From contig JAYFRN010000043.1 in assembly GCA_034925865.1 (NCBI GenBank), positions 4,360 through 68,359 on the forward strand: a stretch of DNA of 64,000 nt, given 5' to 3'. Origin of the DNA: Oscillospiraceae bacterium (GTDB taxonomy: Bacteria > Bacillota > Clostridia > Oscillospirales > SIG627). The notes under the pieces are model-generated. The model was not told where the DNA came from and ran no database searches. It worked only from the letters and a program-made list of their open reading frames with translations. Positions 7,984 through 14,229 of the stretch are shown here, piece by piece. The position numbers were made by a program, and so were the translations under genes. The stretch's first letter is position 1, and the number at the start of each line of letters is the position of its first letter.

Positions 7984-10900
7984 ATGGAAAAAATGAAAAA
8001 AATTATAGTTTTATTTATATTTTGTATTTTCTCTTTGGTTTTCGTTTTGTTGTCATGCAATAAAAAAGTTCTTTTGACAACAGAAACAAACGAAACTGCT
8101 GAAACAGAAATCACAAATACAACTGAAAACATTAACATTGAAAATCCGTCAGAAACTCAAAGCGATGAGGAAAAGACAGATTATACAGCTGTGTCCGAAT
8201 ATATTAATGATGAAAAAGACAATGATAAAACAGTAAAACCTGTTCTTAGAGTCGAATTTCTTTCCAAATCGAATAACTCTGATATCATTTATAAAAACAT
8301 AATCGAAATACCTGAAATATGCGATGGTAACAGTGCTGCTGCCGTAAAAATTAACGCAGATATATATAATAAACTATATGAAAAATATAAAGAGCAAATA
8401 GAGCTGTCGAAACAGGAAGAGATAATCAAAAGCGATCTTGTATATAATATCGGCTACGAATATTCAATGATAAACGAAGTGATAGCGATAAGAATATTTG
8501 AAACCGTAGGATATGCCGAATCGGATTCATATACAAAATCAACATACTATTATTATGACTTAAATAAATATTCAATAATTGATTATAAAGGCTATCTTGA
8601 CAGTATAGGAACAAATACAAACATAATTGCTTCAATTTTAAATGCTGACAATACAAAAGAAGCAGGCATACTTTTCCCGGACGGAATATTTGTTACGGAT
8701 ATAGCGGAAGAAGACACTGATTGCAGGATATCATCCGTACTTTACGATATTCAACATATACGTAATTTAATAAGTAATTATATAATGTATAATTCAAAAG
8801 GTTACGAAGTTATTACTTCCGCATTAAGATCAGACCCGGAAAACCTATATGACGGTAAAATTACTGTATATACAAAATATGAGCTCACCTGTGAATCTTT
8901 CAATGATGATATAACAACCGTAAAACTGTTCTATAATGAATTTGGATCAGATTTTAATTCTGAAGCTGAATTACAGTCGGATCATGAAGGACAAGCGCAA
9001 TTAGAAACTATCGCGCCTTTGAAATATTTTTTAAAAACGACTTCTGCCGGCAACAAGGATGTCTGTATCTCAATAACAGAAAAAACGACAGTCGGCGAGA
9101 AAGCTGAAATACAAAAAAATACTAGCGTAAAATATTATAATAAACTTAGCAAATCGTATATAAACGGCAATGATCCTCTGTTTATGTTTATTACATTCGA
9201 TCCCTCTCAATGGGACACAGACGCACTATACGGACTTTTGAAAAAAATATACAGCGAAAAAGTTAAAGCTGATCCGGACATAAAAAATCAAAGCTTGTTG
9301 GTCATAAGTACATTTAAAAATTATAAAGATGAAAAAGTGACATATCGGTCGGATGTAAATATTCCTTTTATCACGGATGATAATTCCGCCGCAGATGCGA
9401 TTAATAAAAAGATATGCTCAGAAGTCACAAGATTTTTAGCGTCGACAAGCAAAAAAGACATTTGTGATATAAATGACGTTATTTCGGGAGCATCGCAGTA
9501 TTACAGGATATACTGTACGACAAGCGAAGACCCTTTCACAAAGACAATTTCAGTATATCTTACTTTAAATGACTGCGAAAACGTCAACAGCCACAGTATA
9601 GCCTATTATTATGACTGCGAAGCAGGAAAAGAACTCGGATTTGACGAATATATTAAAAAATTTGGATTTACTTCCGAAAGCCTTAAAGAAAAAATTAAAG
9701 AATACGATACTTGTAAAAACACTTCTAATGATCAAATTTTATTTACCTATTCAGAAATCAGCCAGTACGCTCTAAGAGTAATATTATCTAATTCAGAAAA
9801 AGGAGAACACTCGGTTTTAATACCGAGAGATTTTGCCGCGCTGGAAGCTCTAGAAAAAGACAGAGCAGCATATGTTCCTTGTGTCGTGACAGAAAAGGAA
9901 TATGAAATAAAGCTTAATAATTCCGGTACTATAAATACATTTATCTTAAAGTATCCCGTGCTATCCGATTCAGCTGATAAGCCCGGTGCTGTCGAATTTA
10001 ATAAAAAGCTTACTGATTATATAAACGATTTCTATGGAGAAGTTATATCCGTATATAAAAAAGATGTCCCATTAAAAACAGAAGTATCATATAGTTTTTC
10101 ATATAATTACTGCGTTGACGGAAATGTTATTATAGTATGGATCGATGCTCACAAAGGATTATGGCGAACGGATTTTATAATTAATGAAAATAGAGCATTC
10201 TATTATGACCGTTCATCCGATAAAATATTATCTATGAATGAGTATTTATCATATCGCTCTATAAAACCCGAACAGATGATGAATGCGAAAATTCTAAGCT
10301 CACATTACGATCATCTTTCTGAAAGCGAAAAAGAATATAAAGAATCGGAAATTTCCGGCTTTGTTCCGTTTATTACCGGAGACTTTGAGCTGTTTATTGG
10401 TGCCGAAAGAGATGAAAATGTAGTTTCTGTAATCCCCTTAAAAATACTTTCACTTGAACAACAAAAGAATTATTTATATTCATTGTTGAATAAGACCATT
10501 TCCGGAGATATTGTAACCGAGCTTTTCGACATAGCGATGCCGACGAGCATATGCCCGGAAAAGTATGTTGCTTCCGGTGATGTATGCAGTCGTTTCCGAC
10601 TTCCGAGGATAAACCTTGATACCGCTGGAGCGAAAGCGACGAATAAAAAGATAATAGACGATTTCTTCTCCATGTATTCGGAATACATTAAAAATATGAA
10701 GTCTGTATACCTGACTTCACAGGATCAACCGATGTGGGAAGAGGCGGTATACGACGTCGGATATAAATATTCGTTAAAAGGCTCGATATTAAAAATAGAG
10801 ATATTTCATAAAGCGGCTTGCTTCAGCGGTGAATATCTCTCCGATAGTTCGGTTTATTATTACGATATGAAAGCAGATAAGCTGCTTTCATATGTTCCGG

Positions 10901-13900: not shown

Positions 13901-14229
13901 TAACCGAAACGGGCTATAACTTAATAATTCCGAGAGGAATAGAATTAGGCGACGGGATTGTCGGCGCGTTGTCTGTGGTTGGCTGTGACTATAAAAAAAT
14001 ATCAGGTCTTCTCCCGGGAGCTAGCGTTAAAATTGATGTCGCTGATTCGAAAAACGATTTGGCATCCGTTATTCGCACAGATAAAGGCTTTACATTGAAA
14101 TACCGCTCGATTAAATATAACCAGGACGGTACATTTGAAACGCTGTCTATTACAATGGATTTTACTGCGAAAGTATTGACATCAATTTCATTTGGATATG
14201 ATTCTATCAGCGGAACAGGCAGTATATAA
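7984..14229 (+). CDS. giant lipoprotein (2081 aa) with eight tandem RsiV/PdaC-like (DUF4163/DUF3298-type) modules
   Basis: Signal peptide with lipobox (FVLLSC at Cys-25). Eight repeats of a [F/I]P-x-[I/L]...A-x-x-[I/F]N-x-x-[I/L] motif, each followed 80-88 aa later by YY(Y)D-x-x-x-x-K/R-x-[I/L]. No competing ORFs. Confidence 0.8.
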   Translation: MEKMKKIIVLFIFCIFSLVFVLLSCNKKVLLTTETNETAETEITNTTENINIENPSETQSDEEKTDYTAVSEYINDEKDNDKTVKPVLRVEFLSKSNNSDIIYKNIIEIPEICDGNSAAAVKINADIYNKLYEKYKEQIELSKQEEIIKSDLVYNIGYEYSMINEVIAIRIFETVGYAESDSYTKSTYYYYDLNKYSIIDYKGYLDSIGTNTNIIASILNADNTKEAGILFPDGIFVTDIAEEDTDCRISSVLYDIQHIRNLISNYIMYNSKGYEVITSALRSDPENLYDGKITVYTKYELTCESFNDDITTVKLFYNEFGSDFNSEAELQSDHEGQAQLETIAPLKYFLKTTSAGNKDVCISITEKTTVGEKAEIQKNTSVKYYNKLSKSYINGNDPLFMFITFDPSQWDTDALYGLLKKIYSEKVKADPDIKNQSLLVISTFKNYKDEKVTYRSDVNIPFITDDNSAADAINKKICSEVTRFLASTSKKDICDINDVISGASQYYRIYCTTSEDPFTKTISVYLTLNDCENVNSHSIAYYYDCEAGKELGFDEYIKKFGFTSESLKEKIKEYDTCKNTSNDQILFTYSEISQYALRVILSNSEKGEHSVLIPRDFAALEALEKDRAAYVPCVVTEKEYEIKLNNSGTINTFILKYPVLSDSADKPGAVEFNKKLTDYINDFYGEVISVYKKDVPLKTEVSYSFSYNYCVDGNVIIVWIDAHKGLWRTDFIINENRAFYYDRSSDKILSMNEYLSYRSIKPEQMMNAKILSSHYDHLSESEKEYKESEISGFVPFITGDFELFIGAERDENVVSVIPLKILSLEQQKNYLYSLLNKTISGDIVTELFDIAMPTSICPEKYVASGDVCSRFRLPRINLDTAGAKATNKKIIDDFFSMYSEYIKNMKSVYLTSQDQPMWEEAVYDVGYKYSLKGSILKIEIFHKAACFSGEYLSDSSVYYYDMKADKLLSYVPVVTPGDIIHSGRLDQLTGQLVSDYLLTRNHDSLIESVWLDTYVIASSEGAARQISISVPYADIQTLTGDAFNLQIAKWIIDNIVMYASDSEPDDVKDITEYGTNSFNADIAHGLISISVVCPSDISGVNKYKNFYYDIRKNTEIDEKEYFARLGLDKDELVSEIRQYVSSPHAFSASGREFVVSDIITANFISGGALEVYVAGDMGCKTKSIVLPRTTQAENAISELFSEEEPIKDAEYANAFFPIASGDGYTYEKCMLRFPCLNSDMPGAKALNEKLEALFEEKYSAVYADYISGGGDIMHESVVCADYNFALICDTYVIVISETIKSSKGVKTSYTLYYYDSAVDREISLDEFASYLGTTVPKIQEKLTDDPVVAASFKIPDIIGIFPTPGGDLRVYISNEPDKLIVGFFDITSLSALINNKSVSIPEVQVATSFDTNLLSSFLGDMSGFNPLRIRIPYITGGTEGAKSINKAIVADVLGKLSLSGRHEYAELSENTDYFSVNYSYFIKNGCMVISVTILTGYYPYEPEKTVFIYYYDYSAGVRLDEHGAYMLLNKYVPDCKALVDAAVASQSEPGKNTVTAYSVAFNIIYDDVSYPCSFEFPVLTSGSANARAFSENLLKTLFDQNIEYINRWSLDPVCKTNPPSLISVGYDIDETNGIIAITICRNTAIIGSETHFIHKTYYFDLKGDKQIDIKAYCDVMGISLTDVLVKLNRSEYSWFNTDDSGKLKQITSEMVAGIIITSQDDFKAYVKTSNGFTFRMDYPLKMFNNTWYLANLYSMDPDNPFGIVFISKNWSENFISEAYEGNPASGEYGIICVSDSEVLINHSSGFCLYNIISGTVINEYAITKDDIVTSGQYPKGIPEDAEITIRSNAAMITAGKKILVDYIITSISDNIESEYSGRIYIDMSGKFPMPYFETGLLSKTDITINGLDFGINQESFNNILNMMTKDGSKVSFSTQTTSADQSIKKTITAAGITAVINSGVFDGRKETHAEFKLTETGYNLIIPRGIELGDGIVGALSVVGCDYKKISGLLPGASVKIDVADSKNDLASVIRTDKGFTLKYRSIKYNQDGTFETLSITMDFTAKVLTSISFGYDSISGTGSI

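Follow-up and report, generated by a model that had tools for sequence, protein, structure and literature searches.

What does a 6.2-kb gene of an Oscillospiraceae bacterium encode in which one two-part motif recurs eight times, do its repeats share the fold of the lysozyme receptor RsiV, and what could an array of them do outside the cell? The gene lies in a 64,000-nt stretch of contig JAYFRN010000043.1 (assembly GCA_034925865.1), the whole of which we refer to as the window, and its product is called the giant in what follows. The original prediction, made from the letters of the window, had read the giant as a lipoprotein built from eight tandem modules of the kind found in RsiV and PdaC, that is, of the Pfam families PF13739 (PdaC/DUF4163) and PF11738 (DUF3298). 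Our analysis indicates that the eight-fold repeat is real and old, that the module represents a sizeable sequence family of Bacillota, and that this family would have, on the evidence of one modelled module, the two-part fold of RsiV and MPT64.

An intact gene for a predicted giant lipoprotein

An intact open reading frame (ORF) of 2081 codons plus a stop codon spans 7984..14229 on the + strand; it is the sole long ORF at this place, and its frame is open from end to end, in agreement with the single 6.2-kb ORF that had been proposed. Lipoprotein signals combine a positively charged N-terminus with a hydrophobic core and a lipobox of the form [LVI]-x-[GAS]-C, whose cysteine stands at about position 15-35 (PROSITE-type rule), and the giant, which starts MEKMKK-IIVLFIFCIFSLVFV-LLSC with the cysteine at position 25, has each of these features. 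The signal (amino acids (aa) 4-24) is its only hydrophobic segment, in which the Kyte-Doolittle score peaks at 3.18 (19-residue windows, aa 7) against about 1.7 or lower elsewhere in the protein, and the lipoprotein signal of the original prediction is confirmed by the LLSC lipobox, Cys25 and this one N-terminal segment. A signal peptide with a lipobox is also present in giant homologues from other metagenomes (P0002, ...SLLASC; P0003, ...GSFSSC), and most of the first 40 relatives inspected carry a lipobox, the remainder having an N-terminal membrane anchor or an incomplete N-terminus. As judged from its sequence, the giant is a lipid-anchored lipoprotein, with lipidation predicted, that would lie wholly outside the cytoplasm. 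Behind the signal peptide comes a low-complexity tether, and a similar linker follows the lipobox in single-module relatives.

7984..14229, + strand: gene of the giant lipoprotein, 2081 aa (ORF calling and translation)
7984..8058, + strand: lipoprotein signal peptide MEKMKKIIVLFIFCIFSLVFVLLS followed by the lipobox cysteine C (lipobox LLSC, Cys25; read from the sequence)
8059..8286, + strand: low-complexity tether rich in T, E, N and D, aa 26-101 (sequence composition)

The same protein is recorded in NCBI nr as 'MAG: hypothetical protein VB118_12250 [Oscillospiraceae bacterium]', with 2051 aa and a start at L31 (TTG at 8074), and the signal peptide and lipobox (7984-8076) are therefore missing from the annotation. 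Because the homologous giants conserve both, we favour the longer form, and the NCBI start of VB118_12250 is probably mis-called. The possibility that the giant is a sortase substrate was rejected, as its C-terminus (...SFGYDSISGTGSI) has neither an LPXTG motif nor a hydrophobic tail; given that LPXTG is missing, the sortase gene about 4 kb away is not linked to it.

Eight diverged copies of one module

All eight N-motif strings and all eight YYD motifs named in the original prediction are found in the giant. The N-motifs start at aa 109, 460, 657, 873, 1030, 1233, 1431 and 1576 (nt 8308, 9361, 9952, 10600, 11071, 11680, 12274 and 12709), and there are exactly eight copies of YY[YF]D, at aa 189, 541, 740, 958, 1107, 1312, 1509 and 1657 (nt 8548, 9604, 10201, 10855, 11302, 11917, 12508 and 12952). 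The positions first given for the YYD motifs hold to within 3 nt, those of the N-motifs are moved 9 nt further downstream, and the spacing between the two, put at 80-88 residues, measures 77-85 from start to start. The extended pattern YYD-x4-[KR]-x-[IL]-x3-[ED]-[YF] is idealised, being fitted strictly by about half of the copies.

Eight cores of about 120 aa can be aligned end to end, at pairwise identities of 8-26%. When hidden Markov models (HMMs) were built from any seven cores, the eighth was recovered with 25-63 bits (E 5e-4 to 1e-15 for a database of a million). An external family HMM of 178 positions, made from 98 single-module proteins of other organisms only, finds exactly eight domains in the giant, with independent E-values (i-E) of 1e-17 to 2e-26, and none elsewhere in the protein. 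At the level of protein sequence, the eight-fold repeat is far beyond chance. Within the gene there is no nucleotide-level repeat beyond 20-37-nt echoes of motif codons, and because the DNA itself is not repetitive we conclude, as had been argued earlier, that the array has an old origin and did not arise from misassembly of repeats.

8287..8739, + strand: module 1, aa 102-252 (family HMM i-E 5.9e-21, positions 19-148 of 178; leave-one-out 46 bits)
8746..9318, + strand: insert of ~190 aa, probable degenerate ninth module, aa ~255-445 (no family-HMM match; collinear with weak modules of P0002/P0003)
9331..9792, + strand: module 2, aa 450-603 (i-E 7.8e-19, positions 16-161; best sub-threshold PdaC score, 15.6 bits)
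9946..10359, + strand: module 3, aa 655-792 (i-E 1.5e-19, positions 24-147; faint PdaC score, 13.4 bits)
10567..10893, + strand: module 4, aa 862-970, truncated past the YYYD strand (i-E 1.5e-23, positions 15-111 only)
11041..11511, + strand: module 5, aa 1020-1176 (i-E 9.7e-18, positions 16-162; best matches the sixth modules, m6, of P0002 and P0003)
11656..12108, + strand: module 6, aa 1225-1375 (i-E 3.1e-23, positions 18-162)
12259..12531, + strand: module 7, aa 1426-1516, truncated (i-E 4.8e-19, positions 21-106 only)
12658..13191, + strand: module 8, aa 1559-1736, complete and modelled (i-E 1.9e-26, positions 9-168)
13216..14226, + strand: C-terminal region of ~335 aa, aa 1745-2081, non-repeat and found in giants only (collinear and conserved in P0002, P0003 and P0155)

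Measured against the 178-position model, modules 2, 5, 6 and 8 are essentially full, modules 1 and 3 reach about position 148, and modules 4 and 7 end at about 106-111. The truncation of module 4 is common to its positional orthologues, the fifth modules (m5) of P0002 and P0003. In the insert at aa ~255-445, 'VKYYNKLSKSYI' aligns opposite 'FYYDPEADIGIK' / 'YYYDKEADMEVK' in weak modules of P0002/P0003, and this collinear alignment suggests that the insert is probably a decayed ninth module. The C-terminal region, for which a length of ~380 aa had been estimated, is ~335 aa long and can be described as beta-rich; it was not found in single-module relatives and has no match in Pfam, in PDB sequences (profile) or in the protein database (alignment).

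A sizeable family of single-module lipoproteins and a few giants

A profile of the eight cores, searched against 1.84 billion cluster representatives, identified at least 519 clusters at 50% identity (E<=1e-3). Among the best 150 relatives, 131 carry one module, 14 carry two, 2 carry three and 3 carry seven to nine; the expectation that such domains normally occur once per protein is upheld, and the copy number of homologues, for which a survey had been proposed, ranges from one to nine. A typical member is a Bacillota lipoprotein of ~220-300 aa, mostly ~250 aa, with a single module. These single-module lipoproteins (P0010, P0013 and P0016; loci L013, L031 and L069) are true homologues, with E-values down to 1e-16, and share with the giant the PKI...N.KI and YYYD..DKEL..EYL motifs and a lipoprotein or N-terminal anchor, although they have one module and lack the C-terminal region of the giants. 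A Pfam scan of 104 relatives gave a weak PdaC match in just 2. Accessory domains in single relatives are SLH, choline-binding, cell-wall-binding repeats, dockerin and SH3_3, with Cu_amine_oxidN1 in two, and since relatives fuse the module to SLH, wall-binding, dockerin and SH3_3 domains, we infer that the module is extracytoplasmic.

In GTDB genomes, family members come from uncultured gut Bacilli, Clostridia, Acutalibacteraceae, Lachnospiraceae, Eubacteriales and Saccharofermentans (gut and rumen). The degenerate DNA pattern for YYYD-x3-DKEL that was used for this search returned 83 loci, 21 of them with true family members and most others with unrelated Elusimicrobia genes. The pattern matched about forty Elusimicrobia genomes (loci within L004-L083), none passing the module HMM; the peptide evidently also occurs in a conserved gene of Elusimicrobia that is unrelated to the family. 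Family paralogues neighbour each other at L013 2150-3938 (- strand; two of ~235 aa) and at L071 1046-4743 (+ strand; 841 aa and 351 aa), which suggests local gene duplication besides internal domain duplication.

Other searches added neither a name nor a bridge to DUF4163/DUF3298. A word-indexed protein search with the whole giant found only itself, a GTDB genome scan with the whole giant found no relative, and no plasmid was matched by the family consensus in a tblastn search. The 86-sequence module alignment retrieved five proteins from the protein database, none named or Pfam-labelled, and the cluster look-up returned no name for any relative. Among the hits of full-text searches on DUF4163/DUF3298 and RsiV-like proteins, judged by their titles and abstracts, we noticed no description of a tandem array of the RsiV fold. 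As far as its sequence goes, the module thus constitutes a real and sizeable family that is undescribed in Pfam and NCBIfam: the fold is already known, and the sequence family is uncatalogued.

Giants with seven to nine modules were confined to three clusters. The other giants, from JGI/ENA metagenomes, are P0002 (1972 aa), P0003 (1908 aa) and P0155 (1920 aa), which resemble the window protein in having a lipobox, seven to nine detectable modules and the conserved C-terminal ~340 aa, and differ from it in identity (~23%) and by one or two in detectable module number. The window protein is collinear with other giants over aa 867-2000 at ~23% identity (E 6e-57 and 9e-39), the C-terminal region included, and best-match pairing with P0002/P0003 assigns window module 4 to their m5, module 5 to m6 and module 8 to the last. 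Given this collinearity and the positional orthology of modules 4, 5 and 8, the array is older than the split of these lineages. Two of the giants lie at L001 10001-15919 and L003 3158-8884, and in L001 another ORF of >1100 aa follows and reaches the contig end.

Module 8 is predicted to have the RsiV fold

An AlphaFold2 model of module 8 from the 86-sequence alignment scored well (predicted local distance difference test (pLDDT) 86.3; predicted template modelling score (pTM) 0.83). It consists of two short strands, a 27-residue helix and three long antiparallel strands, the third ending in YYFD, followed by a short strand, three short helices and three more strands. A Foldseek search of this model against 350,542 PDB chains placed 5jen_A, 5jen_C, 3cyg_A, 3cyg_B, 3s5t, 4e72 and 2hhi (MPT64) at ranks 1-7, with E-values of 7.8e-5 to 0.03 over 175-198 columns and probabilities of 0.97-1.00 for ranks 1-6 and 0.66 for MPT64. 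The comparison of a single module with the RsiV-lysozyme complex, which the original prediction had put forward, thus ranks that complex first (5JEN; E 7.8e-5, template modelling score (TM) 0.55, 194 columns, 14% identity); the TM to RsiV and 3CYG is 0.50-0.55, and beyond rank 7 it is about 0.2 or below. PDB records describe 3s5t as 'member of DUF3298 family' and 4e72 as 'DUF3298 family protein', and the RsiV co-crystal paper names the same set of structures as DUF4163+DUF3298 relatives (PMC5014341). This model predicts that module 8 has the RsiV/MPT64 (DUF4163+DUF3298) two-part fold, which the other seven modules would share through their homology to it. The module length of ~170 aa equals that of DUF4163 and DUF3298 combined. 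A Foldseek search of the same model against viral structures found nothing at E<=1e-3, and the model gives no sign of a phage origin of the module.

The family profile was also aligned by hhalign with MPT64 (sequence checked against 2HHI) and with a fragment of 3CYG (read in part). YYYD..DKEL came to stand opposite 'FDWDQAYRKPIT' of MPT64 and 'YNIDLKNSKVLK' of 3CYG (P 0.02-0.05, not significant), and the longer string '..sGG...Y..YYYD..nDKELt..EYL' opposite 'AGGTHPTTTYKAFDWDQAYRKPITYDTLW' of MPT64 and 'TGGAHGITFFETYNIDLKNSKVLKLYDII' of 3CYG, in the expected register, with scores that are not significant. The modules have the register 'aromatic-x-[FN]-D-x-x-x-x-[KR]-x-[IL]' in common with MPT64 and 3CYG. 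MPT64 (Rv1980c, M. tuberculosis, 2HHI), 3CYG, 3S5T (BF2082) and 4E72 (PA4972), whose fold is that predicted for module 8, are secreted or envelope proteins that contain the unit once. These single-domain proteins carry a GGAHG/GGTHP loop (read as TGGAHG in 3CYG and AGGTHP in MPT64, ahead of the 'NxDL..GK.L.L.DLF' strand) and score with Pfam DUF3298, whereas the modules of the giant do neither: a GGAHG-type loop is found in no module, and the family consensus retains only 's-G-G'. RsiV (5JEN; PF13739 + PF11738) shares with the giant a full module of ~170-200 aa, its ectodomain being the best structural match, and a place on the outer membrane face of a Firmicute. The giant differs from it in its 14% identity, sub-threshold Pfam scores, eight copies instead of one and a lipid anchor, and in having no cytoplasmic sigma-binding domain, transmembrane helix or adjacent extracytoplasmic function (ECF) sigma gene.

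What the array may do

The reading that we favour, with moderate confidence, is that the giant is a lipid-anchored multi-module extracellular binding or scaffold protein whose modules serve as ligand-binding units. In a Gram-positive-type Oscillospiraceae bacterium, its product would be held outside the cytoplasm by a lipid anchor and would present, behind the signal peptide with Cys25, an acidic Thr-rich tether, eight modules and one probable degenerate one, and the C-terminal region. Each module would be a compact counterpart of the whole RsiV ectodomain, with a predicted N-part of strand, loop and long helix ('P-x-I...A-x-x-x-N-x-K-I', DUF4163-like) packed on a long antiparallel sheet. The third strand of this sheet would end in YYYD and be followed by D-K-E-L..EY, in register with the DUF3298 'NxDL..gK.L.L.D' strand; complete modules would continue with two or three short helices and three strands, a second half that modules 4 and 7 appear to lack. 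By analogy with RsiV, in which loops atop the fold grip a protein, the modules may act as extracellular ligand-binding units, and eight diverged copies on a membrane anchor could provide multivalent or multi-specific binding, carry the C-terminal region across the wall, or do both.

To our knowledge, among proteins of this fold a mechanism is understood for RsiV alone, which senses lysozyme as a receptor and also inhibits it. Two loops atop its domain grip lysozyme with a dissociation constant of 70 nM, and the enzyme is inhibited (PMC5014341). The module is the sole recognisable globular domain in most of the single-module lipoproteins examined, so that it must have a function of its own. Extracellular ligand capture is favoured because RsiV grips lysozyme and because the single-module relatives imply that the module acts alone.

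A number of results weigh against this reading. A clear Shine-Dalgarno sequence precedes neither the ATG at 7984 nor the L31 start, and the public annotation picks a start downstream of that ATG. PF13739 matches the whole giant with 20.9 bits (E 8e-4), under its gathering threshold of 29.1; this echo sits on the N-motif and helix of modules 2 and 3, with none in the other modules, and the family consensus scores 17.2 bits, again below 29.1. PF11738 has no match, even at E<=10, in the giant, in each module or in the family consensus, and no NCBIfam model matches the module. Where eight DUF4163/DUF3298 hits might have been counted, domain scans thus yield one sub-threshold PF13739 match and zero PF11738 matches; the DUF4163/DUF3298 identity of the original prediction holds for the fold, on the top seven PDB matches of module 8, and fails for Pfam membership, the module sequences lying outside PF13739 and PF11738 as those families are defined. 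With respect to structure, a TM of 0.50-0.55 with a root-mean-square deviation of 6-7 Å is a moderate match, a confident model was obtained for one of the eight modules (module 8), and the model of module 2 (8-sequence alignment) was poor, with a pLDDT of 65 and meaningless Foldseek matches, and was discarded. The hhalign comparisons of a profile with single sequences fall short of significance, and profile searches of PDB sequences with the eight modules and with 104 relatives returned signal peptides only, with no RsiV or kin. Gene neighbourhoods in the window, around P0002/P0003 and at single-module loci give nothing bearing on function, and none is conserved between the window, P0002/P0003 and single-module members.

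Could the resemblance to RsiV and MPT64 be convergent, or an artefact of modelling, with the repeats forming an unrelated novel alpha+beta domain? A sequence-level link that is not significant, a TM of just 0.50-0.55 and the missing GGAHG-type motif would all fit, but we regard this as very improbable: the top seven of 350,542 chains come from one structural family with the next TM at or below 0.2, the sole recurrent Pfam echo is that of PdaC/DUF4163 at the corresponding place in the module, the hhalign motif register agrees, and the module is as long as DUF4163 plus DUF3298. The modules are probably related to DUF4163/DUF3298 by distant homology. That the gene is an artefact or pseudogene, either a misassembled repeat or an ORF without expression, is so improbable as to be almost negligible. 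Its source is a metagenome-assembled genome, its ribosome-binding site is not clear, and its guanine-plus-cytosine (GC) content of 36.7% is below the window mean of 42.3%, a low value that may reflect an Ile/Ser/Lys/Tyr/Asn-rich composition; but the frame is open for 6.2 kb in 42%-GC DNA, no nucleotide repeats could mislead an assembler, a ground on which an assembly artefact was rejected, and other metagenomes supply three independent homologues that are collinear with it at ~23% identity. Two further identities were rejected. An anti-sigma factor would not fit a protein with no second hydrophobic segment, no cytoplasmic sigma-binding region and transmembrane helix, and no ECF sigma gene nearby. 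PdaC (YjeA), whose N-terminal domain represents the only Pfam family with repeated faint matches to the modules, is a polysaccharide deacetylase, whereas the giant, besides scoring below the PF13739 gathering threshold, has no polysaccharide deacetylase Pfam match anywhere, so that a PdaC-type peptidoglycan deacetylase was set aside.

The main rival to a ligand-binding role, although we consider it rather unlikely, is that the modules are passive structural spacers, like the Ig-like repeats of adhesins, which project an active C-terminal ~335 aa beyond the wall. All giants have the C-terminal region in conserved, collinear form and single-module relatives lack it, the truncation of module 4 is kept in its orthologues and is compatible with a structural role, and between highly diverged modules conservation falls mostly on aromatic or hydrophobic residues of the strands. 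A mere spacer is harder to reconcile with the ~250-aa single-module lipoproteins, in most of which no globular domain other than the module is recognisable, and the C-terminal region that it would project has no detectable relatives or family. It is also unlikely, and more so, that the modules bind and inhibit host, competitor or phage lysozymes (muramidases) as a multivalent surface decoy, a role that goes back to the original prediction. The nearest solved structure is the RsiV-lysozyme complex, the RsiV ectodomain alone inhibits lysozyme 1:1 (PMC5014341), and the location outside the membrane beside peptidoglycan fits. However, identity to RsiV is 14%, and lysozyme binding by RsiV needs two loops (S169; P259/Y261) that are conserved among RsiV homologues only (PMC5014341); modules 4 and 7 lack the second half, where RsiV carries P259/Y261, and modules that are mutually 8-26% identical do not suggest a common ligand. 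As MPT64 has the same fold and does not bind lysozyme (PMC5014341), lysozyme binding is not implied by the fold. There are also no sigV-type or peptidoglycan-modification genes near the giant.

Surroundings of the gene

The neighbours of the giant gene in the window are a MerR-fusion, two hypothetical proteins, GNAT, a tyrosine recombinase, ProC, DedA and a sortase; it is flanked directly by the GNAT acetyltransferase gene and the convergent recombinase gene, with the MerR-fusion upstream and ProC, DedA and sortase downstream. P0002/P0003 differ in being flanked by an alpha/beta hydrolase (upstream) and a phosphoglucomutase (downstream). No sigma-70 family or ECF sigma gene is found among the neighbours of the giant, and ten single-module loci have no recurring partner and no adjacent sigma factor. 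An operon-based function was dropped because no partner genes are common to the window, the giants and the ten family loci. The features around the gene and in the rest of the window are as follows.

2107-4785, + strand: 892-aa protein with a MerR-type helix-turn-helix in its first 70 residues, then ~820 aa without a Pfam match, 3 kb upstream of the giant
7895..7923, + strand: promoter-like TTTACA-17 nt-TATAAT, ~60 nt 5' of the ATG (consensus scan, 11/12 matches, top site of the region; pattern only)
14243..14262, no strand: palindromic hairpin ATGCCGTTTTCGAACGGCAT, 14 nt past the stop codon (terminator-like scan and sequence; pattern only)
~14354-14384, no strand: second hairpin, GC-rich (terminator-like scan and sequence; pattern only)
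14481-15368, - strand: tyrosine recombinase, XerC/D-like, converging on the giant gene (neighbour annotation)
18100-19233: sortase gene (neighbour annotation)
28814-30217, - strand: lone phage terminase large subunit (Terminase_3 / Terminase_6N), beside the thiamine transporter locus
within 30449-31296: thiamine pyrophosphate (TPP) riboswitch RF00059, 67.4 bits, directly upstream of ThiT
30544-31296, + strand: ThiT/YuaJ thiamine transporter
51000-62500, - strand: dcw-type cell-division/wall-synthesis cluster (FtsW 53030-54349; Mur ligases 55351-56730 and 56738-58246; PASTA penicillin-binding protein 58297-60666)

Promoter-like sites are no more numerous in the region than shuffled sequence would lead one to expect. 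Both hairpins fall in the gap that separates the giant gene from the recombinase gene converging on it, and the recombinase, the hairpins and the low GC (36.7% vs 42.3%) could hint at an island boundary. The 892-aa protein is unusually long for a MerR fusion, and the lone terminase gene may be a prophage remnant. The remaining window is ordinary chromosome, with ValS, the dcw-type cluster and ThiT behind its TPP riboswitch.

Significance

The RsiV fold, as assigned from the model of module 8, appears to be shared by a large family of Bacillota lipoproteins (at least 519 clusters) that neither Pfam nor NCBIfam detects, and in rare cases a single lipid-anchored chain carries the family's module seven to nine times over. 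Because modular surface proteins are common, the giant is no surprise of principle. At its most far-reaching, the array could be a 'receptor rack', in which each of the eight RsiV-fold modules captures a different extracellular protein, such as host or competitor muramidases, bacteriocins or phage receptor-binding proteins. We think this improbable, but if true, the envelope of this Firmicute from an anaerobic community would bear, in the giant, a decoy or inhibitor of multiple specificities, and the hundreds of single-module lipoproteins would be an unrecognised family of secreted-protein binders or inhibitors related to RsiV.

For the family, the module provides a handle for annotating 'hypothetical lipoproteins' of gut and rumen Firmicutes and a set of natural variants on which the generality of protein capture within the fold could be examined. 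Should the modules bind no wall-attacking enzymes, the giant would be one more modular surface protein, of interest mainly for annotation; if they do bind such enzymes, it would be a new kind of envelope defence. We regard the giant and its module family as a solid annotation finding and a reasonable experimental lead.

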